This document shows, piece by piece, positions 29,489-64,000 of a DNA stretch of 64,000 bases. The notes under the pieces are model-generated. The model made no database searches and was not told where the DNA came from. It worked only from the letters and a program-made list of their open reading frames with translations. Origin of the DNA: a virus; the IMG/VR virus record IMGVR_UViG_3300032288_002265, positions 1 to 64,000 of that record, one strand, 5' to 3'. Position numbers and translations under genes: made by a program. Each line of letters opens with the position of its first letter. Within the stretch, counting starts at the first letter, position 1.

Positions 29489-29695
29489 CTACGCGATGAA
29501 GAAGTCTTCCACCTTGTAGGAAGACGTGACGCCGTCGGCCCAGAAGAGCGAGGCCCAGTCGTTGTTGATGATGCAGTGGACGAACCACTTGCCGTGCTTG
29601 TCCTGCTTCAACTGGTAGGCACCAGTCTTCCAGTAAACACGATGACCGCTCTTCACTGAATCAACAGCATCGGCGATGGTGCGGAACTGACTCAT
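29489..29695 (-). CDS. Hypothetical protein
   Basis: AAGGAG SD; AVDSVKSGHRVYWKTGAY. Confidence 0.6.
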   Translation of the reverse strand: MSQFRTIADAVDSVKSGHRVYWKTGAYQLKQDKHGKWFVHCIINNDWASLFWADGVTSSYKVEDFFIA

Positions 29696-29822
29696 GGTTT
29701 CTCCTTCTGTGCTGCAGCGATTGCCTTGGCCATGATGCGAACTACCTCGGTCAGCGACTTGCGCTGGCGTGGCGTGAGCATCCGGTCGAGTGGCTTCGGC
29801 ACGATGAGTTTGTTCTTTTGAA

Positions 29823-30149
29823 TCACTCCTTCTCCTCGGTTAGCGATTCGTAGTAGTGGCCGTGGTACTCGATGCGTCCCGGCGTGGCTGAGAATCCGTA
29901 CTGCGAGTTGATGAAGTCGGCGACGTTGTTGGCGTCACCCTCCATGATGCCTAGCTTTTCCTTAACGTAGGCTGGGTGCGCTCGGAACGGGCCGAACGTG
30001 TAGCACCCCTTGCCGATGATCCCGATGAACAGGTACGGAGCAGACCGCATGATCGCGATCTCGAACTGCGTTGCATTGCCGAGCGCGACTTGATGTATCC
30101 CGTCTTTGAGTACAGGGAACACGCCTTTGGATGTGGGTCGAATAGTCAT
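29823..30149 (-). CDS. Hypothetical protein
   Basis: CA-rich leader and a plausible globular sequence. Confidence 0.55.
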   Translation of the reverse strand: MTIRPTSKGVFPVLKDGIHQVALGNATQFEIAIMRSAPYLFIGIIGKGCYTFGPFRAHPAYVKEKLGIMEGDANNVADFINSQYGFSATPGRIEYHGHYYESLTEEKE

Positions 30150-30169
30150 GGTTGCAGTGTTGTTCGTGG

Positions 30170-30655
30170 TTACTTGTTTGCTTCCCTCTCAACTGTGATG
30201 GACAGATTGAACAGCCAGTTGCTTATCCTGGTCAGTAGGCGGCGGATCAGGCTAGGCTTTGGATTCCCGAGCTTGGGCGTTGGGACCGGAGACTCGATGA
30301 TGATGATCGGAGGGTATGTTGCCTCAGGCAGCTGCGGGCTACGGTGATGCAACTCGACGTGCAACTTACCGAAAGCACCTTTGATGAATCGACCATGCTT
30401 CAGGTGCTTGGGTGCATACCGGAGACGAGCGTTGGCGACTGCGCTTGGCGTTGCGATCATCTGGTTGCCGATCTCAAAGTTCGGCTTGCTCCAGTCGACG
30501 CCACGCCAGTTGATCGTCCACTCGCCGCGCTCGTGCCGGCGGTGGTGCATATTGCGGCGGTGGTAACTTACTGTGGCGATGGACACACCAAGCTCTTTGG
30601 CCAGAGCAGATGTCTTCTTGTTCCAGTCTACGTTGTTCCAGTTGATCTCTTTCAT
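30170..30655 (-). CDS. Tandem HTH-repeat protein
   Basis: WNNVDWNKKTSALAKELGVSIATVSYHR and WRGVDWSKPNFEIGNQMIATPSAVANAR repeats. Confidence 0.6.
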   Translation of the reverse strand: MKEINWNNVDWNKKTSALAKELGVSIATVSYHRRNMHHRRHERGEWTINWRGVDWSKPNFEIGNQMIATPSAVANARLRYAPKHLKHGRFIKGAFGKLHVELHHRSPQLPEATYPPIIIIESPVPTPKLGNPKPSLIRRLLTRISNWLFNLSITVEREANK

Positions 30656-30682
30656 AGTGTATGTGTGTGTTTAGGTGATGGG

Positions 30683-31309
30683 TCAGAGTGAATCGACGGC
30701 GGCTTGGAAGGCGTCCCTGATCTTGTTGGTCAACTCGCTTTCGAGTTCATCGTCATCCAAGCGATCGTCGATCTCGGACTTAACGAAGGCTCTCAGTCCT
30801 ACGATGTCGTCTGCATTGAGTGGGGCTTGGTTCTGCACCGCTTCATCGACTGCCTCGCTGAAGCCGGTGATGTTGTCAGCGGTGATGCTCTTGATGACCG
30901 CTTCAATCTTCTCGTCCACCGCATCGAGCAAGTTGGCCTTGATCACCTCAATCTTGACGGTGTCGAGAACCTCCTTAACAACGTCTTGCTTCACCGCTGC
31001 CATTGAGATGTTGACAGCGTTGTTGACGTGACCATTGAGACTGATCCCGATGATGTCATACAACTCATGGTTCTGTTGCTCCAGTCTAACAATGCGTTCG
31101 ACCAGTGGGTTGGTTGACTTCTCCGCCATCTGCGGAGTGTATGTGAAAATGACTGTGTTGAGGGCGGTATTCAGTGTCACTACCTCCCGCTCCAGTTTAT
31201 CGATGCGTTCGACCAGTGGTTTGGTCGCTTGCTCCACGACCTGCTGCGTGAAGATCGTGATGACTGCGTTGATAGCTGCGAGCACCTGGTTGTTCTGTTG
31301 TGTTTCCAT
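30683..31309 (-). CDS. Acidic coiled-coil protein
   Basis: Internal duplication PLVERIDKLE / PLVERIVRLE; acidic C-terminus. Confidence 0.6.
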   Translation of the reverse strand: METQQNNQVLAAINAVITIFTQQVVEQATKPLVERIDKLEREVVTLNTALNTVIFTYTPQMAEKSTNPLVERIVRLEQQNHELYDIIGISLNGHVNNAVNISMAAVKQDVVKEVLDTVKIEVIKANLLDAVDEKIEAVIKSITADNITGFSEAVDEAVQNQAPLNADDIVGLRAFVKSEIDDRLDDDELESELTNKIRDAFQAAVDSL

Positions 31310-31420
31310 ATCTGCTTGTTGTTGATGTTCCTTGGATCTACCGCCACGTTGTGTGGAAGCAGACCAAAGGAGCCGGGTTTCACCCCGGCTGTGTGGTTAG
31401 GGACTGGTCCCTAGTAGATC

Positions 31421-31636
31421 TTAATCATAGATGTCTTCGTCCTGAGGAACGGACGCTTCGACTACGCGGTAGCCACTGCCGTCTTCCTCACCGTGAATGA
31501 AGTCGGCCATCTGAGATAGGGCCTCTTCTCTAGTGTCGTAGTGGTCGTCGACGTAAGGGCCTCCATCGAATGACGTTTTGATGTCTGCCCAACCACGATA
31601 GAGTGCCGTCTGGATCTTCCACTTGGTGGCACTCAC
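31421..31636 (-). CDS. Hypothetical protein
   Basis: GGAGG SD and GTGA coupling. Confidence 0.6.
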   Translation of the reverse strand: MSATKWKIQTALYRGWADIKTSFDGGPYVDDHYDTREEALSQMADFIHGEEDGSGYRVVEASVPQDEDIYD

Positions 31637-31917
31637 TTCGCACCTCCCACGAAGATGTGAGCGTAGGTTCCGTCAGGCAGACCGCCTGTCACGAACGGCC
31701 TTGCCCATACGTTTTGAGATGAGTGTTTGCATATACCATCCTCCTCATCCTCCTTGATGAACCGCGCAACCAACTGGCGCACAGCCTCGCGATGAACCTC
31801 GTCGCCGCTCAGGTCGAACGGATACGAGATGGTGATTGAACCGCGCTCGCACCTTGCTTTGATGAGTGAACCACATTTGTCGGTGCGTGGTATGTACTTT
31901 GTGTGGACAGCTTGCAT
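31633..31917 (-). CDS. Hypothetical protein
   Basis: MQAVHTKYIPRTDKCGSLIKA, an N-terminus common among small phage early proteins. Confidence 0.65.
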   Translation of the reverse strand: MQAVHTKYIPRTDKCGSLIKARCERGSITISYPFDLSGDEVHREAVRQLVARFIKEDEEDGICKHSSQNVWARPFVTGGLPDGTYAHIFVGGAK

Positions 31918-31921
31918 GTGA

Positions 31922-32683
31922 TTACTTGGTTTTGAGTTGAAGGTTGCGGATCTGACTGACGAGAGTGCATTGCATCGAGACGGCTAGGTCTGCGATGTGT
32001 GATGAGTTCATACAAGCGCACAGCTTGCGGATGTCGGTATCGACGCGCTCCTTCCAGAGGCGGGAGTCGATCATCTCTACCACCTCCTCCACGTTGACGT
32101 GGTTGAGCACACCGACGGTGTTGAATGACGGCCCGTCACTGTGGTGTTCACAAATCCAGTTGGCCTTGTCCGCTGCGTTGTGCCAGAGGCAGTCAATGTC
32201 CTCATCGGTGAGCAGGTGGAAGGCATCGTCGATTTCCTCGGGCTTGAACCCATGCTCGGTGACTCCACTCCACTCGTGCTCGACCTCGCGCTTGAGAGCA
32301 CGTGAGAAATCGCTGCGACCCCACGATACCCACGCATCGTTCTCGGCATCGTTCTCCCGCTTGGACAGGTCTTCCTCATTCAGCACTGGGTAGTCATCGA
32401 GCGATGCCTCCATCGTTTCTGCCTCGGCAACGATGCGTTCTTCCTTCGGGTTTATGATGATGATCTCGTACCAGCCCGGCCCCCAATGGCCGAAGCGGTG
32501 AACCTCTACGTTGTCCCCCTCACCGCCAAGCCCTTCGAGGAAGGCGTGGAAGTTGGACTCTTCCATAGGGCCTGAGTCCCTAGTGCGGGTGACGGGACAG
32601 ACCAGCCAGTCTTGCCGGTCGTCGTCGAGGAATGCGCCGGCACGGTCGAACTGTGTCGGACGGTGATGCTTGTATGGTGTCAT
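31922..32683 (-). CDS. Conserved-looking acidic phage early protein
   Basis: Start MTPYKH; motifs RDSGPMEESNF, RFGHWGPGWYEII and LDDYPVLNEEDLS. Confidence 0.65.
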   Translation of the reverse strand: MTPYKHHRPTQFDRAGAFLDDDRQDWLVCPVTRTRDSGPMEESNFHAFLEGLGGEGDNVEVHRFGHWGPGWYEIIIINPKEERIVAEAETMEASLDDYPVLNEEDLSKRENDAENDAWVSWGRSDFSRALKREVEHEWSGVTEHGFKPEEIDDAFHLLTDEDIDCLWHNAADKANWICEHHSDGPSFNTVGVLNHVNVEEVVEMIDSRLWKERVDTDIRKLCACMNSSHIADLAVSMQCTLVSQIRNLQLKTK

Positions 32684-32687
32684 TGAT

Positions 32688-33041
32688 TCAGTGGCTGAGG
32701 TGGTTGTTGAGCTTCTCCTGAAGGGCCTTGAGTTTATCGTCGGATATGTCGAGTGAATCAGCGATCCCATCGAACAGTTCGGAATCAGCGAGGGTGATGC
32801 GTGCTGCCTCCAACAGGGTGATGAGTTCGCCCTGGTCGAACGGGTGGATGTGGACTGGCTTGTCATCATCCACAGTGACGAGAGACTTGAAGTAGCCGTC
32901 GTCGTCAGTCGTTGACAGTTTGAGTTCCGTCGCACCGGAGTGGATGTCTTCAATAACGTCGGAGCTCCAGTCTCGGTCGTCTTCCATCACGATCAGTGTG
33001 TGGATTGCGAATTGGATGAGACGGTGTTGCTGCTGTGTCAT
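32688..33041 (-). CDS. Acidic hypothetical protein
   Basis: Start MTQQQHRL at 33041. Confidence 0.55.
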   Translation of the reverse strand: MTQQQHRLIQFAIHTLIVMEDDRDWSSDVIEDIHSGATELKLSTTDDDGYFKSLVTVDDDKPVHIHPFDQGELITLLEAARITLADSELFDGIADSLDISDDKLKALQEKLNNHLSH

Positions 33042-33147
33042 GGTGTGATTCAGTGAAGAACGCCGGCAACTTGATGCGCGTGCCGGCTTTGCGCTTAGGG
33101 ACTGATCCCTAGTGACGCCACCGCTGCGACGATGGCGTCGGTAGGAG

Positions 33148-33435
33148 TCAGAGGACTTCAGTGGTGTCGAAGCCCAACTCTTGCAGGTATTCGATCGCTT
33201 CCTTGGGTAGCTCGAACACTCCGTCGTAACCGATGACGCGCCGACCTCGAAGCTGGATGCCGATGTGGACAACCTCGCAGTCGGTGTGCTGGCCAACCGG
33301 CCAGTAGCACCACTCGATCAGTGCGCCACGTCCATCATGCGGGAACCACTCCATCGTGTTCTCGTGAAGCCCGATGTCGATTGGCCGAGAACAGTTGGCG
33401 TGCTCAACCTGTAGCCGTGATGTAAATGACTTCAT
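33148..33435 (-). CDS. Hypothetical protein
   Basis: GYDGVFELPKEAIEYLQELGF; ATGA coupling. Confidence 0.6.
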   Translation of the reverse strand: MKSFTSRLQVEHANCSRPIDIGLHENTMEWFPHDGRGALIEWCYWPVGQHTDCEVVHIGIQLRGRRVIGYDGVFELPKEAIEYLQELGFDTTEVL

Positions 33436-33962
33436 TCAACCTCCATGGCTGCGGTGATGGTCTCGGACAACGCCCTGTGCTGGGTGAGCAGGCGATTGGC
33501 GGCACCTATTGCTTCTTTCTTGCAGTAGTCGAAGCCGTAGAAGCCCCAGCACGAGTCGATCATCTCGTTGTCCTCATCGGTGATCTCGTAGCCGTAGACA
33601 TCACCTCCGATGTATTGCGAGAACGCTTCGACGTGGGACTTGGCGGCTTCGCGAGCCTCTTCCTCTGAGTCCACCTGATCCTTGTCCACCGTCACGGTGC
33701 CGCTGCGCCCGCTGTCCCACGGGCAAGTGAACGGGGTGAGCGAGAGCGCAGAGGTGCCGTGAACCAAGGCGTAGACAGGAAACCTATAAACGTCCTCGTC
33801 CTGCCCCAGATTGAAGAGCGTTGTGTCTGACACCCGCTTATCGCCCAGCGTGTAGCGGGACTTGTCGCGGTAGTAGATGGTGACGCCGTGACTGAACGGT
33901 GCCTCTGCATCTGTGTCCTGCTTGATGGTGACCGTGAGGTGTCCGACTTTGAATGTATTCAT
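33432..33962 (-). CDS. Conserved-looking phage early protein
   Basis: PFTCPWDSG...QYIGGDVYGYEI...DSCWGFYG motif set. Confidence 0.65.
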   Translation of the reverse strand: MNTFKVGHLTVTIKQDTDAEAPFSHGVTIYYRDKSRYTLGDKRVSDTTLFNLGQDEDVYRFPVYALVHGTSALSLTPFTCPWDSGRSGTVTVDKDQVDSEEEAREAAKSHVEAFSQYIGGDVYGYEITDEDNEMIDSCWGFYGFDYCKKEAIGAANRLLTQHRALSETITAAMEVE

Positions 33963-34261
33963 TGTGTGATGTTGAGGTGTTGCTTGTGATTGTTGTAAGG
34001 GCAGAACTCTGCTCCTCCTTCGTCTGTCTGTGTCAGGTATCCCTTGATCCTTTTACCTTTGTATCGGGTAACGGCAGGGATTGAGAAGTAGGTGTTGGCG
34101 TAACCTGTGGCATAGCACGTCAGGCGCAGATCGGTGCCGTGGATCGGGCAGTTGTTCACCTTGGCCCAAGGTCCGAGGCAATCGAAGGGACCTCCGGGTC
34201 TCCACCCAATGGCTCCGTTCGAGAACTCGAATCGTTCACGAGCGATAAAGACTTGGCTCAC
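33959..34261 (-). CDS. Hypothetical protein
   Basis: TGYANTYFSIPA...GKRIKGYLT; GTGA coupling. Confidence 0.6.
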   Translation of the reverse strand: MSQVFIARERFEFSNGAIGWRPGGPFDCLGPWAKVNNCPIHGTDLRLTCYATGYANTYFSIPAVTRYKGKRIKGYLTQTDEGGAEFCPYNNHKQHLNITQ

Positions 34262-34518
34262 TTCGCACCTCCATCCTGTATTGCCTTGCCGGCGGGATAC
34301 TCGAAGACAACGGCGTCATCGATGATCTCGTGCTTCACCTTGCCGGTGAGCAGGTCGACGGCGCACCGCTTGGTGAGCATGTAGCCGCTTGTCAGCAGCT
34401 TGATCGACCATGATTTGTTGAATGAGTATTGGTTGATCGCCATCGCGATAATCCCGGGGGTGTGGATCATGCTGTCGGAACTGAGCCTGATCGTGTCTGT
34501 CTGTGTGGTTGCGTTCAT
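34258..34518 (-). CDS. Hypothetical protein
   Basis: Coupled ORF ending GGAK. Confidence 0.55.
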   Translation of the reverse strand: MNATTQTDTIRLSSDSMIHTPGIIAMAINQYSFNKSWSIKLLTSGYMLTKRCAVDLLTGKVKHEIIDDAVVFEYPAGKAIQDGGAK

Positions 34519-34841
34519 GGTTGTGTTTCGTTAGGGACTGAGTCTTTAAGCTCTGCCTCGATGAAGAACTCCGACCCGTCAGGCAGAATGACGGACGGAA
34601 CATAGGGGATGACGCCCATCTCTCGTTTGTCGTAGAGGCACGACGCGAGCATGGGCCTGTGTTTCTTTTCCATAGGCCACGGGATTTCGTCCCAGTCTCC
34701 TTCTGGATACTGAAACAAGATGACCGGGTCGGATGAAAACCATGCCTTCATCAGGGCGTCGACGATGTCGCTGTGCTTGGTGTGAAGACGGCCGTGTTCG
34801 ACGACCAGTGTGACTTGTGCTGTGTGTTGTATTGCTTTCAT
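34515..34841 (-). CDS. Hypothetical protein
   Basis: ATGA coupling at both ends. Confidence 0.55.
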   Translation of the reverse strand: MKAIQHTAQVTLVVEHGRLHTKHSDIVDALMKAWFSSDPVILFQYPEGDWDEIPWPMEKKHRPMLASCLYDKREMGVIPYVPSVILPDGSEFFIEAELKDSVPNETQP

Positions 34842-35296
34842 AGGTTGTAGAGGTATCCGAGTTCTCGGAGGCTGACGTGCTTTTCGGCACCGATAATTAC
34901 GCTGTCGTTGACGTTGATCCTGAGAATCTGTCCTCCCTTCTGGAGTTCGCGGCTGATCCTGATGTCAGCCTCGGATGGGGTCGGGTCTCCGCTTGGGTGA
35001 TTGTGAACCACCACAAGGGAGTGCGCTGCATTGATGATCGCAGCACGGAAGACTTCCCGTGAATGGACCACGACCTGATCTAGCGTTCCGAGTGCGACCA
35101 AGACGTGGCCAGTGATCCTGCATCGAGTGTTGAGCAGGATCGCAACAAAGGATTCCTGATCCGGCGAGAACCAGGAAGCTGACGGGATGTTCTGCCTCCA
35201 GTAGGAGACGATGCGTGATGGGCAGTCACCCATGACTGCTTCGCTAGGTCCGCAGTCCCTAAGCCGCATGACCTTGAATTCTGCGGGCGGTCTCAA
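34838..35296 (-). CDS. radC: RadC-like JAB domain protein
   Basis: QESFVAILLN, VHSREVFRAAI and HNHPSGDPTPSEAD; likely TTG start at 35296. Confidence 0.85.
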   Translation of the reverse strand: MRPPAEFKVMRLRDCGPSEAVMGDCPSRIVSYWRQNIPSASWFSPDQESFVAILLNTRCRITGHVLVALGTLDQVVVHSREVFRAAIINAAHSLVVVHNHPSGDPTPSEADIRISRELQKGGQILRINVNDSVIIGAEKHVSLRELGYLYNL

Positions 35297-35592
35297 TTGG
35301 CACCTCCAGTTGCTTTGGATACGGCTTCCTGTGCCCATCGTGCTATGGCGAGGAAGTCACCCCTCCCCGGCGCATTTGGGAACGTAGTGGCGGAAAAATC
35401 CGCTTGTGTCTTGATTGCAACGAGCGCGGCCAGCAACTCGGGGGAGGATGCGATGAGACGGGCGTTGGCACCCTCATTCATGTGCATGACAGCGATGACA
35501 CCATCTTCTCGATCACGCACCTTGGTGTAGGTGCAGAACTGGCCGGGAACTGTGTTCCTGGTGATGTGCCAAGGGCCTGGGGTGTGGCTCAC
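35293..35592 (-). CDS. Phage protein of the HTPGPW...ANARLIA type
   Basis: SHTPGPW and ANARLIASSPELLAAL. Confidence 0.7.
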   Translation of the reverse strand: MSHTPGPWHITRNTVPGQFCTYTKVRDREDGVIAVMHMNEGANARLIASSPELLAALVAIKTQADFSATTFPNAPGRGDFLAIARWAQEAVSKATGGAN

Positions 35593-35948
35593 TTCGCACC
35601 TCCCTTCTGCTGCTGAAGCACGCGGTTCACGCGGATCCAGTACCGATCCGTGGCGGACTTTGTCGGACCCTTGGGGCCACCGTTCCAGATTCTTGCGGCG
35701 TATTCCTGATCGCGACCCTCGGCGTACCTCTTGAGGTAGAGGGCGCACACCTTGCGGGCGGCGACCCTGTTGGTCATCGACTTCCAAGTGTATGACGTGC
35801 CGGCGAACCGGTTCACGTCTTCGACCACGCCACGGTGGATCTGGAGCGGGCCAACGGCCAAGCCTCCGTCACCGATTGCTGAGTCGCGACCGTTGCTCTC
35901 GACAATGATCAATGCCGAGACGAGTTGTGTGAGTTGTGCTGCATCCAT
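35589..35948 (-). CDS. Lysozyme-like protein (i-type/destabilase or SLT-like)
   Basis: ALIIVESNG (catalytic Glu), GPLQI and ARIWNGGPKG. Confidence 0.75.
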   Translation of the reverse strand: MDAAQLTQLVSALIIVESNGRDSAIGDGGLAVGPLQIHRGVVEDVNRFAGTSYTWKSMTNRVAARKVCALYLKRYAEGRDQEYAARIWNGGPKGPTKSATDRYWIRVNRVLQQQKGGAK

Positions 35949-36021
35949 AGTTGTGTTGTGTGTTCCGGTTCAGCCGGATCTGCTAGGGACTCATTCCCTA
36001 ACATCCGCAGCACTACGTCTG

Positions 36022-36254
36022 ATCTCTGGAGCATTTCGCTGAATGATCGGGCGCAGCCTGCGGAGGTTAAGAAACGCTGCTCTTTGGCCTCCTTTGCCAT
36101 TCGATGGGCGGCTCGTTTCGTTGCCGTTCCAAAGGGATCTGTTCGTCGCGGAGTGAATCCAACTCCGGGCAGTATTTGCGCCTTTCCACGCATCGGATCT
36201 CAGCGTCGCCCGCAACTTCCGATTGGCCATCTCTGGAGCATTACGCTGAATGAT
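36022..36254. repeat. 26-nt direct repeat, 2 copies
   Basis: ATCTCTGGAGCATT(T/A)CGCTGAATGAT at 36022-36047 and 36229-36254. Confidence 0.8.
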
Positions 36255-36669
36255 GGGAACCCTCTTTTGGTTGCGGCCTGAGTCGATGCGCCAGTGATGC
36301 GCCTGACTTGCCTTCATCTTACGTCTGACTGTGATCACCCTGTCCCGTGGTGTCGCCACGGTTAGGACTGACGGCGATGGAACATTTTACCCACGGAGGG
36401 GACCATCAAACGCGAGCCCAAGGCTTCTTCGATCTCCCGCAGGGTTCCCCCCACGAGCAGTCTTTCTTGCAAGGCCTGTGATTCGCACAGGAACGGTTGG
36501 TGTTGTAGGTTTATCCGTTTCAATCCGCCACGGATCACAGCAGCCCGGAGGATTGCAGCCTCGGGGTATCTCCGCAGTTTACGAGTTGCTCGCCGCACAC
36601 CGATCTCCTTGGCCTCGACGGCTGGGTGTCTGTTGGGTCTTGGCATTCTGCGCTCGACGGTCTCTATCC

Positions 36670-36825
36670 AGCTGACCGTTGCTTGCTAGGGACTTGGGGA
36701 CTAGTGCCGCTGACTAGGAAGGGACGAACCCTCCGGTCAGACCCACGCCGAAGCATGGGGCTGAACGGAAAGCCCGAGGGGCCGAAGCCCACCGGGAAAG
36801 AGACAAGGGACGCTGGTCCCTAGAG
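36670..36825 (-). ncRNA. Candidate structured RNA (hairpin array)
   Basis: Consecutive minus-strand stems, two with C(UUCG)G loops; no convincing ORF. Confidence 0.4.
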
Positions 36826-37064
36826 TAGGCCAGCCACAAGGAAGGCGCAGATGGCGACAACGCCCACGGACTCGCCCTCCTCGACAATCAGCCGAGCCTC
36901 ACGAGGCCCAAGCCTGACAATGTGGTGGACAGCACGGGGCCAAGCGCGGCGTTCATAGCCAAAGCCGAAAAGGACGGGGCGGGATTCAAGGATCATGGGA
37001 ATGGGATGAATGGGTTGAAGGCCGGGGCAGATTGCGCCACCCCGGCCCACTAGGGACGCCGTCC

Positions 37065-37625
37065 TTATTCGGCGGACTCGTCGTCGGCGGACTCGTCGGT
37101 GTCGTCCATGTCGCCAGCCTCGATCATGGCGATGGCCGCTTTCAGCATTTCCACGGCATCGTCGGCATCTTCATCGGCGAAGGCCCAAGCCCGCTTGGCG
37201 AGACGCTCCACGGCGTCGGTGTCGTCGGCTTCACCCTTGGCCTTGGCCTTGCCCTTGGCCTTCCCAGCCTGAATCAGGGCATCGAGGATCGACACGGCAT
37301 CGCGAGCCTTCCCGGCATCGGAGCGCAAGGCACGCTGGCGCAGGCCGGCCGCACGCAAGGCCTTGTTCACAGAGTTGCTCTTTTGTGCCCGAGCATAGAC
37401 CGCTTTGATTCGGCCCGTGATGGCATCATCATCGAGACCGAGTGACTTGTACTTGGCGACGGCTTCCTTGACGGCTTGGGTCAGATTGGCTGCAGCAATC
37501 ACGGCCGTTTCAACGATGGCCTGCAGGGCGGTGTCGATGGCGACGGCCGAGGCTTCAATGGCCTTGGCATCGGGCTTGGCGGACTTGGTGGCGGGCTTGG
37601 CTGACTTGTTGTTGTTGGTGCTCAT
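37065..37625 (-). CDS. First early-region protein with a basic N-terminus and acidic C-terminus
   Basis: Strong codon bias; CAA-rich leader; C-terminal DMDDTDESADDESAE. Confidence 0.75.
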   Translation of the reverse strand: MSTNNNKSAKPATKSAKPDAKAIEASAVAIDTALQAIVETAVIAAANLTQAVKEAVAKYKSLGLDDDAITGRIKAVYARAQKSNSVNKALRAAGLRQRALRSDAGKARDAVSILDALIQAGKAKGKAKAKGEADDTDAVERLAKRAWAFADEDADDAVEMLKAAIAMIEAGDMDDTDESADDESAE

Positions 37626-37759
37626 GTTGTGTCGTTGTTGTGTGGTGGGCGTTGCTGCCCGTTGTTGTTATTGAATAAGGGACGCACGTCCCTTGTACAC
37701 ATAGGGTTTATGGCGATAAACGGTTGATACCCTTACTATCAAAGGTAACAAACGGCCTC

Positions 37760-37779
37760 GGGGGTGGGGGGAGGGTGGG
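37760..37779 (+). other. G-quadruplex motif
   Basis: GGGGG-T-GGGGGG-A-GGG-T-GGG in non-coding DNA. Confidence 0.7.
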
Positions 37780-37900
37780 AACGCTCTGGGCTGGCTGTGG
37801 ACACATACCCCCCTTTTCTCAACTTTCTGACTTTGGCAGTATTGAACGGTCCCGCACTCGTCCAGTAACAGTGATAGACGCTGTACTACTACAACGATTG

Positions 37901-37983
37901 TGCTCTTGCTGGCACTTACTGGATCGTGCGGGCACTTGCTGGCACTTGCTCCGGGCGGTGGGAGGCACTGGCCGGCACGTGCG
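37901..37983 (+). repeat. GGCACTTGCT-like decamer repeats
   Basis: Units at 37901 (degenerate), 37911, 37931, 37941, 37964 and 37974. Confidence 0.7.
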
Positions 37984-38313
37984 GGGGTGGGGCGGGGCGA
38001 CGAAGCCTCCCAGGGGAGATGGGTAGGTTGGAGCGTGGGGGTCTCCTGTGTCAGCCTCGGGCGATGGTCGCCTTGTCCTACCCTGGCCTGCTACGTGGGC
38101 CTGCTGACGCCTTCTCCAGATCACCTGGAGCGCATTAAGCGGCGAGGGGTTCTGCCCCATTCCGCTCCATCCCTTCACTCGTGGACCGCCTTACGCGATT
38201 TCCAGGAGCTACACGGCCGTTCCTCTTGGGTTCGGCGTGCTCGTGTTACCCCTGTAGCGGTGTAGCGTCAAGGGTGTTGACGTTTCTGTGGGTGGCGGGA
38301 ATCCTCTGGAGCA

Positions 38314-38580
38314 ATGAAATCGACGTTTACCTCGACGACTGCAGCTGTGATTGCCCCAGCCAATGTCTACCGCAAGCACCTGATCATCCACAATGAGAGC
38401 GGTGGTCATCTGCACGTGCTTTTGGGGTCTCGGACGACCGTTTCCACCACCAACTACACTGTCGACATCTCTAACGGACAGGTGTGGCAGGTGCCTGCTG
38501 GGTTCATTGGCGTTGTCCAGGGCATCTATGCAGCCTCTGGAAGCGCCCAGGTGACCGAGGTCAACGAGACCGACCACTGA
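38314..38580 (+). CDS. Small beta-rich protein, possibly virion decoration
   Basis: ANVYRKHLIIHNES...LHVLLG pattern; lone + strand gene. Confidence 0.55.
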   Translation: MKSTFTSTTAAVIAPANVYRKHLIIHNESGGHLHVLLGSRTTVSTTNYTVDISNGQVWQVPAGFIGVVQGIYAASGSAQVTEVNETDH

Positions 38581-38603
38581 TCTTCGGGAATGGAGGGTCT
38601 TGG

Positions 38604-39557
38604 CTACGAGGCAACCTTGAACTCGGCCTTGATGACTCTCTCGTTCATTCCGGTAGAGTAAACCAGGTCCATCCAGACGCTTCCAAGCGGCTTCGGAGGC
38701 ATCCCACGCTCCACAGCCCAGCCATGGGAGCCATCACCGTAGTCGTCCTTGTAGCCTGGGGTGCGTATGAAGACCTGCGAGTCCATGGAGACGTGGCTGT
38801 TTTTCAGGCGCTCCCGTGCCAGGGTGGCCATCCATGAGTCATGGGTGTGCCCATTGAGTATCACGTCGGCATCGGGTAGGAACGATGCCTGGCGACGGGT
38901 CGAGAGCACACCATGGGTCATCATTCCACCGCCTCCAGATCCGTGGAAATACTTCAGTTTCATTGTAACCGAAGCACCTCCTCGCTGGTCCGGCTTGTAC
39001 TCCCGGTCAGCACCACGGAACTTCACCCAGCCACCGTAGCCACCAAGTCGAATGCCGTGTCCCTTGGAGCGCATCAGGGCCACCACACGCTCGCTCATGT
39101 TGATCTCGTGGCGCTTGAGGACCGAGGTCTCGTGGTTGCCCATGGCTAGTAGTGCCACAGGGTACTGCATCAGGAACTCGACCGTGTCATCGATGACGGA
39201 GTCAAAGTAGGCACCGGAACGGTACTCGGGTCGAAGCTCGTCCTTGGAGCCTCGAGGATCCCACTTCCCCTGCATGGCGTCGAACCAGTCGCCTGCAATG
39301 ATGATGACAGCATTCTGTTGGAGAGCTTCATCGAAGTGGCGTTTGAGCATCTTGCGGTCGCACTTCATGGAGTCGAAGTGGACATCGCTCGTCAGGAGCA
39401 CCTTCAGTTTCGATCCACGACCAAACGGAATTAGTATGGAGTGGACGTTACGTGAGAGCTCGGAGACTTCAACGGAGAGAGGATTGATAGACTTCATGGG
39501 AGGAGGAGGAAAACCCTTGACCTCTCCATCAAGCGCAATCCTGTAAGTGAGTGTCAA
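38604..39557 (-). CDS. Calcineurin-like metallophosphoesterase
   Basis: SDVHFD, AGDWFD, GNHE, YFHG and GHTH. Confidence 0.85.
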   Translation of the reverse strand: MTLTYRIALDGEVKGFPPPPMKSINPLSVEVSELSRNVHSILIPFGRGSKLKVLLTSDVHFDSMKCDRKMLKRHFDEALQQNAVIIIAGDWFDAMQGKWDPRGSKDELRPEYRSGAYFDSVIDDTVEFLMQYPVALLAMGNHETSVLKRHEINMSERVVALMRSKGHGIRLGGYGGWVKFRGADREYKPDQRGGASVTMKLKYFHGSGGGGMMTHGVLSTRRQASFLPDADVILNGHTHDSWMATLARERLKNSHVSMDSQVFIRTPGYKDDYGDGSHGWAVERGMPPKPLGSVWMDLVYSTGMNERVIKAEFKVAS

Positions 39558-39859
39558 GATATGGCGCTGGGCACAAACGGCTCACCAGGGCAACGTTGGG
39601 CGTGCTCTGCGAAGCCGGCGTAGGCTCGGAGATCGACGTAGTTGTCCTCGTGGAAGACCCGCATCGATCGCTGCAGCTTGAACTGGCACATCATCAGTTC
39701 AACGACGTGGGATGGCAGGGTGTGAGGCAGGCGGATGCCGTAGTGCTGCTGGATGGCGGCGGTCCAGCATAGGCCGATGTTATCGTGCGATAGGTGGGGC
39801 TCACCGTACACGCTGCCGCGTTGCTGGATTGTCTCGCTGACCTTGGATTCGGCGCTCAT
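39554..39859 (-). CDS. DUF6378-like protein (all-alpha, NTP-pyrophosphatase-related)
   Basis: QRGSVYG...DNIGLCW...KLQR...HEDNYVDLRAYA. Confidence 0.7.
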   Translation of the reverse strand: MSAESKVSETIQQRGSVYGEPHLSHDNIGLCWTAAIQQHYGIRLPHTLPSHVVELMMCQFKLQRSMRVFHEDNYVDLRAYAGFAEHAQRCPGEPFVPSAIS

Positions 39860-40100
39860 TTGAAAGTTCGATTGATACGTCGCGCCCCTTGATCGAGACC
39901 GACTCTACGGCCTCGCGCTTCAGGAGCTCTTCGGCCAGTTCGTTGTTCCCTTTCCAGGAATGGCAGACGCAGGCCATGGTGATGTCGTGGTTGTCGGGCT
40001 TCGTTGATTTCTTCTTCTTCTCGCCGTCCGCCTTGAGCTCGCCGCGCACCACCGTGACGACGCGCCCACCTGACAGGGAGACTTGGATTATTGCACTCAT
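39801..40100 (-). CDS. Hypothetical protein
   Basis: MSAIIQVSLSGG...; fills the intergenic gap. Confidence 0.45.
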   Translation of the reverse strand: MSAIIQVSLSGGRVVTVVRGELKADGEKKKKSTKPDNHDITMACVCHSWKGNNELAEELLKREAVESVSIKGRDVSIELSNERRIQGQRDNPATRQRVR

Positions 40101-40168
40101 CGTGGAGTGCGGTATCCGGCACACAAGTCAAGCACCGGATACCGCGTCAATCTTGTTGCGTTTGGGTG

Positions 40169-40270
40169 TTACTTGCCACCTTTGACAGCCTTACCACCCT
40201 TGCCGCCCTTGGGCGGAAACGGGAACGGCTTGCCACCCTTGGTGGACTTGGAATCCTTGGATCCTTTCAT
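40169..40270 (-). CDS. 33-aa Lys/Gly-rich peptide
   Basis: AGGAGG SD and ATGA overlap; MKGSKDSKSTKGGKPFPFPPKGGKGGKAVKGGK. Confidence 0.6.
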   Translation of the reverse strand: MKGSKDSKSTKGGKPFPFPPKGGKGGKAVKGGK

Positions 40271-40926
40271 TTCAATTCACCTCCTTTCCTTTTGCGTATC
40301 TCCGCAAAAACCAGATTTCCGTCCATGATGCGTACAGTGCAATCAGCGACGTGTTTGACCTTGTGGGTCACGTTGTAGAATTGGCCCTTGTTCCACAGCA
40401 CCAGGTCGTCCCCTGACGTGTCGAAGTTCCACCCGTGCATCCCCTGATACTTCTGCTTCTCACCCTCGTTGCGGTGGTGGAGCAGCGTTACCCAGCCTCC
40501 TGGCTTGGTCACTGCGATCATCTCGAGGATGACCGTCATCGGGTATTGGCTGTGGTCGACGCTGTTCTGGGCGTTGACCAGATCGAAGTAATCGGCTCCG
40601 AACTGCTCGTAGAGCCCCTCGCCAAAGCCCAGGATGGTCCTGACAGGGGGAACGATGCCATGCTTCTCCAGCAGGCGGTTGTAGCCCTCGGCCAGAGGGT
40701 CCACAGCGGTGACAATGATGCGGTCTTCGCCACAACGCTTGCCGAACGTGGTCAGCGGGCCAGCGCCCACATCGAGCACATGGGCGTTGGCAAAGAGTTT
40801 TCCGCGCATGAAGTCGGCAACTTGGGAATCGGGGTCAAGGCGGTTCTGGAAATCTCCAGGCCACTGACCTCCCTTGGTCTCCAGAATGGAGTCCCAGAAA
40901 TTGAGCTCGTGTGAAGTTTCACTCAT
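40267..40926 (-). CDS. Class I SAM-dependent methyltransferase
   Basis: VLDVGAG motif I, VTAVDP, FDLVNAQNSVDH and TKPGG; start MSETSHEL. Confidence 0.85.
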   Translation of the reverse strand: MSETSHELNFWDSILETKGGQWPGDFQNRLDPDSQVADFMRGKLFANAHVLDVGAGPLTTFGKRCGEDRIIVTAVDPLAEGYNRLLEKHGIVPPVRTILGFGEGLYEQFGADYFDLVNAQNSVDHSQYPMTVILEMIAVTKPGGWVTLLHHRNEGEKQKYQGMHGWNFDTSGDDLVLWNKGQFYNVTHKVKHVADCTVRIMDGNLVFAEIRKRKGGELK

Positions 40927-41227
40927 GCCAACCAACGTCTTGCGGCTGTCCTGTCTCCCTTGCCCAACATCCCCCTCCAAAGCGGATCTTGGTAGGCATA
41001 TGGCATCCGCACCCATAAGGCGCATTCTGCCATGGCCTGCATCTGTGGAGATCCCTCCCGTACAACGGACACCGAGCACACTGACGAAGTAGCGCGAGCG
41101 TAGTACGACGCGATCTCCATCGCCAAGGGGAAAGAAGGAATCGGAGCATCCAAATTCCTGGATCCTTCCCCTCGGCGTGGAGAACAGCGATCCACTCACG
41201 CAGCCTGCGAAACTTAACAAACCTCAT
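40919..41227 (-). CDS. Cys-rich (Zn-binding) protein
   Basis: CARCP...C...GCGCHMPTK...GC. Confidence 0.55.
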   Translation of the reverse strand: MRFVKFRRLREWIAVLHAEGKDPGIWMLRFLLSPWRWRSRRTTLALLRQCARCPLYGRDLHRCRPWQNAPYGCGCHMPTKIRFGGGCWARETGQPQDVGWHE

Positions 41228-41465
41228 GCCACAGTTTGTGTACTTTCTGTGGGGTGGTTGGCACGGCCTTTGCCTTGAACAGGTCAAACTGGCCTGAGAT
41301 GGCATCGGCGAGCACATCACCGCTGATGCTGCGCTTGAGCCTGGTGTGTTTCTGCCAGCCCTGAAGCAACTGCTTCTTGGGATCCCAGCGGAACACCCAG
41401 ACCTTCCCCTGCGCCATTGCCTCGAACTTGCAGCGGCGCACCCTCGTTTTCTTCGTTGGATTCAT
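41214..41465 (-). CDS. Small basic hypothetical protein
   Basis: ATGA-coupled ORF. Confidence 0.5.
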   Translation of the reverse strand: MNPTKKTRVRRCKFEAMAQGKVWVFRWDPKKQLLQGWQKHTRLKRSISGDVLADAISGQFDLFKAKAVPTTPQKVHKLWHEVC

Positions 41466-42870: not shown

Positions 42871-42916
42871 TCCTGTTTTTGGGTGGGACGTATCTGATGG
42901 AAGTCTTCGGTTTCAT
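42725..42916 (-). CDS. Small zinc-finger protein
   Basis: CYLC...CSQC; ATGA coupling to the DnaB stop. Confidence 0.5.
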   Translation of the reverse strand: MKPKTSIRYVPPKNRNEQRCYLCESDGPHKWFDSELNQFVCSQCLSQAAAAERFLQQSAQHPH

Positions 42917-48642: not shown

Positions 48643-48652
48643 GCAGCAAATA

Positions 48653-48696: not shown

Positions 48697-48721
48697 TCAA
48701 ATGAAATTTCAAAAAAAAAGA

Positions 48722-61685: not shown

Positions 61686-64000
61686 ATGGCGCAACTAACG
61701 GTCAAACCTGCGGATGGAGGCACCTTGATCACAAGGGCCGCATCTGCTGACGTTGGGGCGCAACGGTACACCGCCAAGGTGAACTGGCGGCGCGACCTGA
61801 CCGACGAGATGACCCGTGAGGGTTGGGACTACTTCAACCCGCTCCCAGACGAGGTTGACTTCCAGACGTTCCCGTTCCCTGGATCCTCCTTTCCGATCAA
61901 CCTGATCCACCACGTCCGCCGTCCAAACGGCGAGAGTGCGGTCGTGGTCGGCAACGCAACGACGCTGTACCGGTTCAATACCGTGCTCGAGGGATACACC
62001 ACGGCCGACTACGCCGACGGTGTGCTGGACAGTCCTGCTGGCGCACTGCTGCAACCGTACTTTGCCACGCCCACCCGCTGGCAGATCATCGGCTCTGGAT
62101 TCGATCCGGATGGCCGGCGCTGGGAGGCTGAGAACGTCAACGGATCAACCGTGTTTTCCAACGGGGTCGATCTCCCGGTCGAGTACCGCGTCGAGTACTG
62201 GGAGACCAAGCCGCTCTACGAGCTCCGCGAGCAGGGTGTTATCTGCCTTGGCACCATCGGCGAAGATGCGTCGATACTGATGGGTGGTGATGTCACTGAG
62301 ATTGACTCCACAGACATCGATACTGTCCTTGGCCTGATCACCTCCGGATCGATCACTGTCTCACAGGTTGGGTTTACCCGGAATCGGAACGTCAGTGCGA
62401 CCAGCACCGGCACCGTGGTCACGACGAACACGGCGTTCTTCCAGTCCACCGACGTTGGCCGTGTGCTCGTCTGGTCGAACGGCAAACGTCAGACGATCAC
62501 CGCCCGCAACAGCGCGACCGAGATCGTGGTGTCCTCTGGAGATGCGGTGCCGCTCGGCCGCACGTTCCACATCACTGACTCGCAGCAGATCTCCACGAGT
62601 AATGCTTTCAAGATCACCGCGTCTGCATCGTTCTTTACGAGCGAGATGGACGGCAAGGTTCTGTCCTGGCCAGACGGTTCCGTCCGCACGATTGTCGAGG
62701 TCGTCAGCCCGACGGTTGCCATCGTGGACTCGGACTGGCCGATCCAGGCCGGCGTGGTGAAGTACGACAATCCGAAGGCGTACCTCGGCCTTGAGGATCT
62801 TAAGACGGCCGTCAACCTTTCGCGTCCGAACACTCCGCTGGGCTACAGCCAGCGCCAGTATCGCGCACTCTGGTCGGAACTAGAGCAGCCCACCCGCTTC
62901 GCCGTCCGCATTCCATGCACGTTCGAGGCTCGATCTGGAGTCATCGCTGTCACCCGCACAAACCGATCGATCAAGACCGGCGACGTGGTTGCCATCGAGG
63001 GCGCAGGGGAGTCGGGTGGAACTCTTCAGACTACCGTCACCGGCACTGGCCCTGGTGTGATCACGATCAAGGACAAGACGTTGGTGTCCGGTTCTGGGTC
63101 GGTGACTCGGTTCTCGTCGATCGGCGGCACCGCTGGGTATGAGGATCTCCAGGACGATGGTTCAGCCATCCTGAAGATCGCCCGCCTCCAGGGGCGCGTC
63201 ATCCTCTACAAGGACTCAAACATCTTCGTGGGACGATACACTGGGTCCGCTGAGCGCCCGTTCGAGTTCGAGCGCATCGTCGCGTCCCACGGTCGCAGCC
63301 TGTACTTCCGGAACACGCTGGTCTCGATCAACAACCGGACGCACTTCTACGCAGGTAGGAACCGGTTCTACCAGTTCGACCTAGTGACCCGCGTCCCTAC
63401 GCCGATCGAGTCGGCCGACTACGTATCGAACCTATTCTTCGACACGGCCGACATCGCCGACACCGAGGAGATCTACGCTGCCGACAACCACCTCACCCAG
63501 GAGGTGTGGATCACGTGCCCGTCGTCGCCGACGAAGACGCTCTGCTTCGACCACGTCTACAGCACCTTCTCGACGATCGACTTCGCGTTCACTGCTGCGG
63601 CCCCGGTCAAGGATCCTTCCGCGCCACTGGTGAAGGAGACCTCGAACTGGTTCCTCATGGGCACCTCGAACGGTGTGCTCGTGCAGTACGGCCTGTCCGA
63701 CAAGCCGAACGACGCCTGGGAGGACAAGAAGTCGATCTGGTATCGGCGCAACGCCAGGCCTTACAACGCCACCAAGGCATCGTACCAAGCGACGCTCTCC
63801 AGCGGCCTGATCCACTTCGGTGATCCGTACAACGAGAAGCGCGTCACCTCGTACAACCTCCAGTTCTCTAGCCAGCAGGTTGATGGACCGGTGGCCGAGG
63901 TCGCGTTCTACTCCGCGCTCAACCAGGAGTCCGACGAGTTCGCTCTGGGTACCATGGCGATCTCGAGCGTCGGAAGCCGTGGCCTGGTCCCGCTGCACAC
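61686..64000 (+). CDS. Tail nozzle / DNA-stabilisation protein (3'-truncated, not in the ORF track)
   Basis: ATG at 61686 (MAQLTVKPADGG...NWRRD...REGWDYF); no stop found in the stretches I translated; beta-propeller-like, with WSEL and YKDSNI; follows the adaptor gene. Confidence 0.7.
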   Translation, partial: MAQLTVKPADGGTLITRAASADVGAQRYTAKVNWRRDLTDEMTREGWDYFNPLPDEVDFQTFPFPGSSFPINLIHHVRRPNGESAVVVGNATTLYRFNTVLEGYTTADYADGVLDSPAGALLQPYFATPTRWQIIGSGFDPDGRRWEAENVNGSTVFSNGVDLPVEYRVEYWETKPLYELREQGVICLGTIGEDASILMGGDVTEIDSTDIDTVLGLITSGSITVSQVGFTRNRNVSATSTGTVVTTNTAFFQSTDVGRVLVWSNGKRQTITARNSATEIVVSSGDAVPLGRTFHITDSQQISTSNAFKITASASFFTSEMDGKVLSWPDGSVRTIVEVVSPTVAIVDSDWPIQAGVVKYDNPKAYLGLEDLKTAVNLSRPNTPLGYSQRQYRALWSELEQPTRFAVRIPCTFEARSGVIAVTRTNRSIKTGDVVAIEGAGESGGTLQTTVTGTGPGVITIKDKTLVSGSGSVTRFSSIGGTAGYEDLQDDGSAILKIARLQGRVILYKDSNIFVGRYTGSAERPFEFERIVASHGRSLYFRNTLVSINNRTHFYAGRNRFYQFDLVTRVPTPIESADYVSNLFFDTADIADTEEIYAADNHLTQEVWITCPSSPTKTLCFDHVYSTFSTIDFAFTAAAPVKDPSAPLVKETSNWFLMGTSNGVLVQYGLSDKPNDAWEDKKSIWYRRNARPYNATKASYQATLSSGLIHFGDPYNEKRVTSYNLQFSSQQVDGPVAEVAFYSALNQESDEFALGTMAISSVGSRGLVPLH

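Follow-up and report, generated by a model that had tools for sequence, protein, structure and literature searches.

The stretch of DNA analysed here, referred to as the window, comprises the first 64,000 bases of IMG/VR record IMGVR_UViG_3300032288_002265, a viral genome of 73,327 bp (hereafter G0; GC content 59%, no N), and the element under study is an array of short inverted repeats, TAGGGAC-N2-4-GTCCCTA, distributed over a block of small genes between 31398 and 37694. The minus strand carries the genes from approximately 22 to 50 kb (Table 1 lists those with an assignment), while the remaining genes, including an open reading frame (ORF) of 3467 amino acids and those for tail-like proteins, lie on the plus strand. 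The minus-strand block of interest contains about 17 small genes, designated g1 to g17 in the direction of transcription, and we infer from its position and gene content that it is an early region. Numerous metagenomes from freshwater, lakes and estuaries contain near-identical DNA. No close isolated phage was found among 50,697 phage records, which were searched by megablast with positions 31000-38000 and by tblastn with two structural proteins, the GP88-like protein being the only one with distant matches in this isolate search; a host search with the large terminase subunit across genome contigs returned a single match, 35% identical, in a contig of a metagenome-assembled genome, and the window contains no tRNA genes.

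A scan of the entire 73,327 bp for TAGGGAC/GTCCCTA palindromes with spacers of 0-6 bp identified nine sites of the form TAGGGAC-N2-4-GTCCCTA, at two mismatches or fewer, within 31398-37694. With spacers of 2-4 bp, the whole of G0 holds one site without mismatches, 7 with at most one and 10 with at most two, compared with means of 0, 0 and 0.08 in 60 order-2 Markov genomes, none of which contained a site with one mismatch or fewer. The exact half-site TAGGGAC is found 11 times in the window, 10 of these within 31398-37057, and in 100 shuffles its mean was 3.65 and its maximum 8. Among the nine clustered copies the spacer measures 2 bp in two, 3 bp in five and 4 bp in two; one copy is perfect, the total length is 16-18 bp, consecutive copies are 246-1437 bp apart, and the palindrome, being symmetric, has no orientation relative to transcription. 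The array is real and lineage-specific, its enrichment, positions and conservation pattern now being established.

The copies follow the architecture of the gene block closely. All six non-coding gaps of at least 35 nt between 31310 and 37700 carry one (upstream of g1, and at the g1/g2, g2/g3, g4/g5, g12/g13 and g16/g17 junctions), three more lie in the coding sequences of g8, g14 and g7, and the gaps further downstream, below 31300, carry none. In two gaps the initial TAA or TAG of the motif is also the stop codon of the upstream gene. An earlier note, made from the sequence alone, had listed ten elements in this region, and all ten are present where it placed them, although the one at 36687 has three mismatches when read as a palindrome and is a half-site only, belonging to the densest half-site cluster in the genome (36687..36725). 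The clustering that the note described survived the full-genome scan, with 9 of 10 sites at two mismatches or fewer inside 6.3 kb; its statement that the full motif is absent elsewhere is accurate for the rest of the genome apart from one copy at 63382. It had further described five copies as followed by a second stem-loop, which we can confirm for four (37051, 36805, 33096 and 31398), each with a compact GC-rich stem-loop 3-10 nt downstream, whereas the copy at 35984 precedes a stem of only 5 bp. The fifth percentile of 1,120 control windows was -19.0 kcal/mol, and only the stem-loop after copy 2 lies beyond it. The CA-rich leaders pointed out in the same note are real and lack a Shine-Dalgarno sequence; overlapping gene pairs reuse a GGAGGTGCGAAGTG cassette instead of such a leader.

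A scan of 29500-39000 for sigma-70-like promoters gave none, against a mean of 3.4 in shuffles, with a consensus of the E. coli type that may not be that of the host; the host promoter type may therefore differ, or transcription may start only upstream of g1. The candidate early promoter located there (Table 1) would possibly place copy 1 about 15-30 nt past the transcription start.

Table 1. Palindrome copies, stem-loops and selected genes of the window (copies numbered leftward from g1; G1 is a related contig)
Feature	Position	Strand	Remarks
Copy 1, AAGGGAC-GCAC-GTCCCTT	37677..37694		2 mismatches, symmetric; 51 nt upstream of g1 ATG
Copy 2, TAGGGAC-GCC-GTCCTTA	37051..37067		1 mismatch; minus-strand first bases TAA = g1 stop codon
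Copy 3, AAGGGAC-GCTG-GTCCCTA	36805..36822		1 mismatch; minus-strand TAG = g2 stop codon
Three same-orientation half-sites, TAGGGAC, GGGGAC, AAGGGAC	36687..36725	plus	In ORF-free 173 nt upstream of g3
Copy 4, TAGGGAC-TCA-TTCCCTA	35984..36000		1 mismatch; between g4 and g5
Copy 5, TAGGTCC-GCA-GTCCCTA	35245..35261		2 mismatches; N-terminal coding part of RadC-like g7
Copy 6, TAGGGAC-TGA-GTCTTTA	34532..34548		2 mismatches; last codons of g8, 13 nt before g9 ATG
Copy 7, TAGGGAC-TG-ATCCCTA	33096..33111		1 mismatch; between g12 and g13
Copy 8, TAGGGCC-TGA-GTCCCTA	32566..32582		1 mismatch; inside g14, ~100 nt past its start
Copy 9, TAGGGAC-TG-GTCCCTA	31398..31413		Perfect; between g16 and g17
Outlying copy, TAGTGAC-CCGC-GTCCCTA	63382..63399		1 mismatch; inside 809-aa ORF 61686-64115 (plus)
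GC-rich stem-loop	37019..37048	minus	3 nt downstream of copy 2; 50-nt fold -24.8 kcal/mol
GC-rich stem-loop	36773..36796	minus	~8 nt downstream of copy 3; 50-nt fold -16.1 kcal/mol
Weak 5-bp stem-loop	35964..35978	minus	5 nt downstream of copy 4
GC-rich stem-loop	33062..33087	minus	8 nt downstream of copy 7; 50-nt fold -16.4 kcal/mol
Terminator-like stem-loop	31371..31390	minus	7 bp, 6-nt loop, then CCTTTGG; 7 nt downstream of copy 9; 50-nt fold -18.0 kcal/mol
Candidate early promoter	37700..37765	minus	TTGATA and TTATCGCCATAAAC kept between G0 and G1, variable 17-18-nt spacer
g1	37625->37065	minus	
g2	36996->36820	minus	
g3	36362..36646	minus	94-aa ORFan; helix-turn-helix-like stretch GGTLREIEEALG
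g5	35948->35589	minus	SLT-like
g7	35296->34838	minus	RadC-like
g14	32683->31922	minus	
Tyrosine integrase	22040-23128	minus	
ThyX; GP88-family protein	within ~22-50 kb block	minus	
DnaB-like helicase	42913-44226	minus	
AAA_24 ATPase; PD-(D/E)XK nuclease	within ~22-50 kb block	minus	
Large terminase subunit	48722-50269	minus	
3467-aa ORF	10574-20977	plus	Giant virion protein

Contigs of relatives were retrieved with the large terminase subunit and two early proteins, scans of IMG/VR with g1 and with g11 yielding no relatives; palindromes were sought in them by a criterion of perfect 6-bp arms, as k-mer enrichment and loose palindrome clustering were too noisy. The earlier note had proposed following the motif into relatives, and the outcome is divided. 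One contig, G1, is 86% identical to G0 over 37560-44275, where it ends, and retains the arms of copy 1 (AAGGGAC...GTCCCTA), while two of the four loop bases have changed, as have most of the 11 bases upstream. Conversely, the motif does not recur in two more distant genomes, G2 (70 kb, syntenic, with a large terminase subunit 66% identical and a giant protein 34% identical) and G3 (72 kb, giant protein 26% identical): each has one exact half-site and no repeated palindrome with perfect 6-bp arms, a criterion that a weaker or gapped motif could escape. GC hairpins and CA-rich leaders are nonetheless present in the intergenic regions of both. Nor was any TAGGGAC palindrome found in a sister lineage of three contigs (L030, L032 and L033) that shares g5, g7, g10, g14 and g16 with G0 at 65-90% amino-acid identity. 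In IMG/VR, the exact palindrome occurs in at least 117 stretches, and in none of the 80 loci examined was it accompanied by a second copy at one mismatch or fewer.

Orthologous junctions in the sister lineage indicate how individual copies came about. At the copy 9 site, the alignment of L030 and L032 shows a clean 21-nt gap which removes just the palindrome, the stop codon, stem-loop, T-rich tail and leader of the g16 junction being conserved; moreover, the stem-loop corresponding to 31371..31390 displays one compensatory pair change, G-C to A-T. The gap next to a conserved, covarying stem-loop suggests that the stem-loop acts as the structural element and the palindrome as an add-on. At the copy 8 site, four relatives continue in frame with CAGGGACTCGGACTGCC or a similar sequence that partly resembles the palindrome, and the G0 copy therefore arose by substitutions and not by insertion. 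Copy 5, likewise, overlies a conserved R-x-R-D/E-C-G-P/T-S-E stretch, and the palindrome is produced by the codon choices of G0.

The relatives carry palindromes of their own, none of which occurs in G0. In L030, L032 and L033 the sequence GGTGTA-A-TACACC is found at three distinct junctions, at two of them in the order stop codon, palindrome, hairpin, CA-rich leader and ATG, and at the third separated from the ATG by 17 nt that include a Shine-Dalgarno-like AAGGAG. Contigs L027-L029 have GGATCA-N2-3-TGATCC, 8-17 nt before start codons and directly after a GC hairpin; ACACCC-N4-GGGTGT is present twice in L020, and TCCACC-N3-4-GGTGGA twice in L025. The types are mutually exclusive by lineage, with TAGGGAC in G0 and G1, the GGTGTA type in L030, L032 and L033, and the GGATCA type in L027-L029. 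A separate kind of repeat was observed in L047 (1930-2010 and 2428-2508) and L049 (10464-10544 and 10962-11042), where junction modules of ~60 nt, consisting of the hairpin AGCACC-N7-GGTGCT, a leader, a Shine-Dalgarno sequence and ATG, are duplicated exactly before two different genes.

Whether the palindrome is recognised as duplex DNA or as a hairpin can be approached through its conservation pattern. At every one of the 7 positions, 15-18 of the 18 half-sites agree with the consensus. The arms depart from the consensus 14 times, and two of these departures form one compensated pair (37677), which is not kept in G1; the covariation that the earlier note had set as a check is otherwise absent from the mismatched copies. 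Ten pairs are broken, one of them to a G-U wobble in the sense RNA and three to wobbles on the antisense strand, close to the chance expectation of ~1.7 per strand (one in six without selection, by our own arithmetic). On the half-site strand, a pyrimidine stands immediately outside the arm in 16 of 18 cases, yet flank-to-flank complementarity is limited to 2 of 9 sites; this bias without flank pairing fits half-site recognition better than an extension of the stem. Hairpins folded from the sense RNA range from -0.2 to -10.4 kcal/mol, with six copies at -6.2 to -10.4 and three weak ones (-0.2, -3.5 and -4.4), and those folded from single-stranded DNA from -0.1 to -5.7 kcal/mol.

The variable spacer had been taken in the earlier note as favouring a hairpin. 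The spacer does vary from 2 to 4 nt with the arms kept, but the argument is weakened by the sister palindromes with spacers of 1-2 nt, which are near-perfect double-stranded palindromes of 13-14 bp and leave hairpin stems of only 4-5 bp. In addition, copies 5 and 8 were made by substitution within conserved frames, without insertion or deletion, which argues for selection on the sequence itself. Half-site conservation, the flanking bases and the sister dyads favour half-site recognition on duplex DNA, and a repressor operator array, which that note had named as its last option, becomes the favoured one, given uncompensated half-site conservation, symmetric unpaired flanks, substitution-made copies and the presence of another palindrome in the sisters.

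According to the interpretation we favour, and to which we assign an even chance, the array would provide a dimeric DNA-binding protein of this lineage with sites resembling operators or stoperators, which double as recombination points. The palindromes would be double-stranded binding sites of a phage-encoded and probably dimeric regulator particular to the lineage, with Y-TAGGGAC as half-site. They would overlie the first ~6.3 kb of leftward transcription out of the conserved non-coding stretch at 37.7-38.3 kb, with one copy just downstream of the presumed early promoter, one in each sizeable intergenic gap, typically between a stop codon and a terminator-like hairpin, and a few in coding sequence. 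Occupancy by the regulator would silence or time the small-gene block, either in a lysogen, given the integrase gene, or when early expression gives way to middle expression, and the same 16-18 bp at gene borders would also supply short homologies for the gain, loss and swap of cassettes. We infer the binding of a protein, its identity and the regulatory outcome alike from sequence. Two features expected of operators were found: there are many copies with one at the early end, copy 1 being placed after the conserved non-coding region and ahead of g1, with the remaining ones at gene junctions or within genes, and the motif diverges between related lineages as in immunity-type specificity. The asymmetric site oriented with transcription that characterises stoperators proper was not found.

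As candidate cognate regulator we propose g3, on the strength of its helix-turn-helix-like stretch. The ORF-free 173 bases upstream of this gene contain one palindrome and three further half-sites, the pattern expected of an autoregulated regulator gene. No homologue of g1-g4 was found in any fetched locus, and the relatives of g3 among 5.8 billion proteins are near-identical copies only. The neighbouring g4 (35991-36359) is a doubtful ORF with a very basic product; it contains a 29-nt direct repeat (36022-36050 and 36229-36257, 93% identical) that yields IIQRNAPE twice, and it could be non-coding or encode an arginine-rich RNA-binding protein.

Several observations weigh against an operator array, and against g3 as its reader. 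The protein has no Pfam, PHROG or PDB match, so that homology offers nothing beyond the near-identical copies, and its fold model, with a predicted local distance difference test score (pLDDT) of 47, is unusable; other weak helix-turn-helix matches occur at 23327-23740, 23753-24082 and 30170-30655. Spacers of 2-4 bp (ranging over 2-3 and over 3-4 bp in two relatives), the chief point against duplex recognition, would rotate the half-sites by up to ~70 degrees relative to each other, which would be unusual for a rigid dimer and natural for a hairpin. No sigma-70-like promoter lies by any copy, and the link to transcription initiation is therefore unproven. Why an operator should prefer to stand 3-10 nt upstream of a terminator-like hairpin is not obvious, and this placement of a palindrome before a terminator resembles the position of nutR in phage lambda. 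Finally, the evidence is comparative throughout.

Arrays of this general kind have precedents. Cluster O mycobacteriophages contain a 17-bp dyad, TGTTCGG-NNN-CCGAACA (7+3+7 bp), of which Corndog has 34 copies, 23 of them in a leftward operon at the right genome end; according to the account of the repeat in PMC4351075, both intergenic gaps and genes contain copies, whose recombination with one another caused insertions and deletions. The same account leaves the function unproven and suggests a dimeric DNA-binding regulator (PMC4351075), a reading of the 7+3+7 dyad that we count in favour of operators here. Both systems have 7-bp inverted arms with a short free spacer, are specific to a phage group, are enriched in a leftward early operon and its short gaps with some copies in genes, and show insertions or deletions via the copies. 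However, the Cluster O repeat as described there has more than 30 copies genome-wide, invariant arms and a fixed 3-bp spacer, usually AAA or TTT, conserved across all members (PMC4351075), whereas the G0 array has 9-10 copies, almost all in 6.3 kb, with degenerate arms, a spacer of 2-4 bp and a terminator-like hairpin downstream of five copies, and the sisters carry a different palindrome; neither the fixed spacer nor the invariant arms are seen.

The stoperators of Cluster A phages such as L5 and Bxb1, as these sources present them, are asymmetric sites of 13-14 bp bound by a monomeric repressor and oriented with transcription, with up to 30 copies per genome (PMC6550527) distributed across it (PMC9283540), and their motifs diverge with the repressor between heteroimmune lineages (PMC9283540, PMC6550527). 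They resemble the present array in having many copies of one site in transcribed regions and short intergenic spaces, together with a site at the early promoter, and in a motif that differs between lineages; the site described here is palindromic, unlike theirs, and any repressor for it is putative. In T4-type phages, the promoter/stem-loop cassettes (PeSLs) are built on a sigma-70 consensus promoter (PMC2839356, PMC4122927, as far as these describe them). Repeated composite motifs that fill the space from the stop codon of a small ORFan to the start of its neighbour in a plastic early region, a terminator-like stem-loop and repeats at the borders of insertions, deletions and replacements are common to both; in G0, unlike the PeSLs so described, no sigma-70-like promoter was detected with the E. 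coli-type consensus, and the conserved part is a short dyad upstream of the stem-loop, whereas PeSLs lack a conserved palindrome of their own. Thus, the array is closest in form to the Cluster O repeat, in logic to stoperators and in genomic role to PeSLs. The conserved inverted repeats (CIRs) of the temperate phage phiC31 (Ingham et al. 1994, Wilson et al. 1995) reportedly consist of an inverted repeat of ~17 bp, with many highly conserved intergenic copies in the early region, and are said to be bound by the repressor.

Among the alternatives, the one that survives best, although we regard it as rather unlikely, is that the palindrome is transcribed into a small stem-loop and bound by a lineage-specific RNA-binding protein, which would allow read-through of terminators in the manner of a local antiterminator of nut/boxB type, or else bring about cleavage or stabilisation of the RNA. 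The conserved arms and variable spacer are what such an element would display, but the changes in the arms are uncompensated and the loops share neither sequence nor size, the loop of boxB-type sites being the part that is read. Six of the nine copies do form respectable hairpins in the sense RNA and three do not, so that neither maintained pairing nor stability of every copy, as expected of a structured RNA, was found; no Rfam family matched the window at gathering thresholds. The layout is more favourable: five of the nine copies stand 3-10 nt upstream of a stem-loop, that at 31398 being terminator-like and covarying, and the order of stop codon, small hairpin, terminator and next gene recalls phage lambda, in which nutR sits between cro and tR1. 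In L027-L029, a palindrome 8-17 nt before the ATG leaves no room for a promoter and is therefore transcribed, but the sister palindrome GGTGTAATACACC is limited to a 4-bp stem. The candidate proteins g3 and g4 are basic, arginine-rich and unique to the lineage, yet sequence-specific reading of an RNA stem of 6-7 bp is uncommon.

A more speculative idea, which we hold to be doubtful, is that of a lineage-specific address code, in which each lineage would place its own palindrome between stop codon and terminator hairpin of the early-gene cassettes, and a fast-evolving protein would read it in the nascent RNA or in extruded DNA, deciding terminator by terminator whether transcription continues. 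With the same low probability, such a code would amount to a distributed local antitermination or initiation system, whose sites double as exchange points that keep cassettes compatible with the regulator; it would be unlike both lambda N/nut, with two sites and a processive complex, and N4, with three promoters.

Equally doubtful is the proposal that the repeats persist as boundary homologies for cassette exchange, in the manner of PeSLs, without a dedicated binding protein. Variation bearing on it was assessed in contigs of four metagenome runs. Breakpoints of variants fall 0-3 nt from the edges of three copies, at 35984 (0), 36805 (0) and 31395 (3): contigs of X11 and X14 diverge from G0 at exactly 35984 and rejoin at 35956, X14 breaks at 31395, and in X11 an insertion of 256 other letters separates 36799 from 36805. 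Gene content in the region is mosaic, variant X16 lacking g6 and variants lacking g13, and the 21-nt presence/absence difference at copy 9 is clean; the junctions at 31385-31415 and 33083-33113, holding copies 9 and 7, share 31 nt at 87% identity (family D6), and the phage encodes an AAA_24 ATPase and a PD-(D/E)XK nuclease. Recombination between repeats is documented, within the descriptions given, for Cluster O (PMC4351075) and PeSLs (PMC2839356). However, mosaic borders are expected at gene junctions in any mosaic phage, and we take the breakpoints as a hint only. Other borders use unrelated repeats, as in the variants without g13, whose joint (32676/33035) shares 7 nt of a repeated leader. 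Homology would need neither dyad symmetry nor two conserved arms with a free loop, the substitution-made copies in two coding regions are not cassette borders, and the sigma-70 promoter that PeSLs contain is not seen here. Among the 40 of 520 base differences listed, X11 showed none within copies 7-9, being 99.7% identical to G0 over copies 8-9 and without any difference over 33035-33213 (179 nt, holding copy 7). The deletion joint of g13 in X11 (32676-33044) lies within a 7-nt stretch of the leader CACTGAATCA, which is present before both g13 and g14. A metatranscriptome run, X19, contributed five short contigs on the stretch, which were not used because contigs show neither RNA ends nor transcription.

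It is very improbable that the palindromes form extruded DNA hairpins serving as promoters for an RNA polymerase carried within the injected 3467-aa virion protein, as the earlier note had considered, and this N4-like view of the giant protein, unlikely as it is, loses ground with the present results. Phage N4 has a similar genome size and a virion protein of ~3500 residues, and its three promoters, with a 3-nt loop and conserved bases, are read by a T7-like polymerase domain. The resemblance consists of a genome of ~73 kb with a ~3500-aa protein, short stems (5-7 bp) with small loops upstream of early genes, confinement of the copies to the block presumed to be expressed first, and the lack of sigma-70-like promoters over 9.5 kb for a consensus that may not be that of the host. 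On the other hand, there are nine copies with free loops in both size and sequence, and N4 promoters need a 3-nt loop with a central purine; the single-stranded hairpins are weak (-0.1 to -5.7 kcal/mol), and G2 and G3 keep the protein (34% and 26% identical) without such a motif, which hence does not travel with it. The layout is also unrelated to that of N4, since an integrase is present and the gene for the large terminase subunit shares its strand with the replication genes and the small early genes.

The protein itself points the same way. It has no Pfam, PHROG or PDB sequence match, no T7-type motif B (RxxxKx6-7YG) and no NADFDGD, its sole DxDxD-type string being DEDAD at residue 2700. 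The conserved C-terminal 1200 residues, to which the fold model was restricted, gave an all-alpha model (pLDDT 68) with no PDB fold match at E <=0.001, and residues 1-2040, compared by language-model features with the Atlas, are nearest to LPD-type 'polyvalent' protein clusters, which is a lead only; a very divergent polymerase domain might still lie outside the part that was folded, for instance in the middle third. Its 24 homologues are unnamed or bear generic or plainly unrelated source names, and P0021 (polyvalent-protein domains) and P0023 (ArdC-like name) match only 3-6% of the query. Contigs of 58-71 kb (P0002, P0003 and P0006) encode giant proteins that are 92-95% identical to that of G0. 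By its features the protein resembles an injected multi-domain protein more than a polymerase. Residues 1250-1500 are rich in alanine and lysine.

Sites for a site-specific recombinase (integron attC-like or invertase-like) or a mobile palindrome of the REP/MITE type are barely credible: small cassette-like ORFs are separated by imperfect palindromes, a tyrosine integrase is encoded at 22040-23128, one presence/absence difference is clean and breakpoints lie at motif edges, but the 2-4-bp spacer within a total of 16-18 bp is too short for the core sites of tyrosine recombinases, in which inverted binding sites surround an overlap of 6-8 bp, attC being a long bulged hairpin; no serine recombinase or RAYT-type transposase was detected among the proteins scanned, two copies arose by substitution within frames, and none of the 80 IMG/VR loci has a further copy at one mismatch or fewer. 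Readings as parS, iterons, restriction sites or CRISPR repeats were dropped, as neither intervals of 246-1437 bp nor placement at gene borders agrees with them; no ParB family match was obtained among 71 proteins scanned.

Additional features were recorded in and around the array. The outlying copy at 63382, with a 4-nt spacer, is far from the array and has a chance expectation near zero. A translational-coupling cassette, on the minus strand GGAGGTGCGAAGTGAGCC, combines a Shine-Dalgarno sequence, a GTG or TTG start and the first codons, and is found in four copies at overlapping gene pairs (31625-31648, 34250-34273, 35285-35308 and 35581-35604). The non-coding stretch at 37700-38300 is 94-100% identical between G0 and G1, with flanking genes at 86%, and includes three AGCAAGTGCC-like repeats together with a C-rich tract, CCCACCCTCCCCCCACCCCC, which is also seen in the corresponding non-coding gap of G2; possible roles of the stretch are those of an origin, attP region or regulatory hub. 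Next to it, at 38314-38580 on the plus strand and within the minus-strand block, lies an ORF of 88 amino acids, which G1 has at 100% identity and which matches an ORF at another place in G2 with 42% identity, and the minus-strand ORF that overlaps it looks spurious. Inside g17, positions 31078-31272 hold an 84-nt tandem-like duplication (75% identical, spacing 111). On the minus strand at 48555-48721, after the stop codon of the large terminase subunit gene and before the following minus-strand ORF, a T9 run is followed by three TTGAG(T/A)GCA repeats, which may be a packaging or regulatory site. At G000 66464-73327 (L068 6464-13327), a simple caller left long stretches without ORFs, with fibre-like repeats (…GGTGGAAC.CT.A.CGGAA… and …CACGC.GGCAAC…TACGC…) that may represent a large repeat-rich tail fibre gene or a frameshifted assembly.

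Taken together, the comparisons suggest that the copies mark the junctions of small genes in the presumed first ~6 kb and most probably serve a phage-specific regulator as binding sites, hairpin promoters being the less likely role. Phage-specific dyad arrays in early operons were already known from Cluster O, phiC31 and Cluster A, all of them cultured actinophages; the novelty lies in the occurrence of such an array in unrelated, uncultured freshwater phages whose sisters, with homologous genes, carry different palindromes in similar layouts. If the cognate protein were found, such pairs would be usable as orthogonal repressor-operator parts. For the phages themselves, an orthologous junction that differs only by a 21-nt palindrome segment constitutes a natural experiment on the turnover of regulator and site specificity, on the creation of sites by insertion in spacers and by substitution in genes, and on their double use as recombination points.

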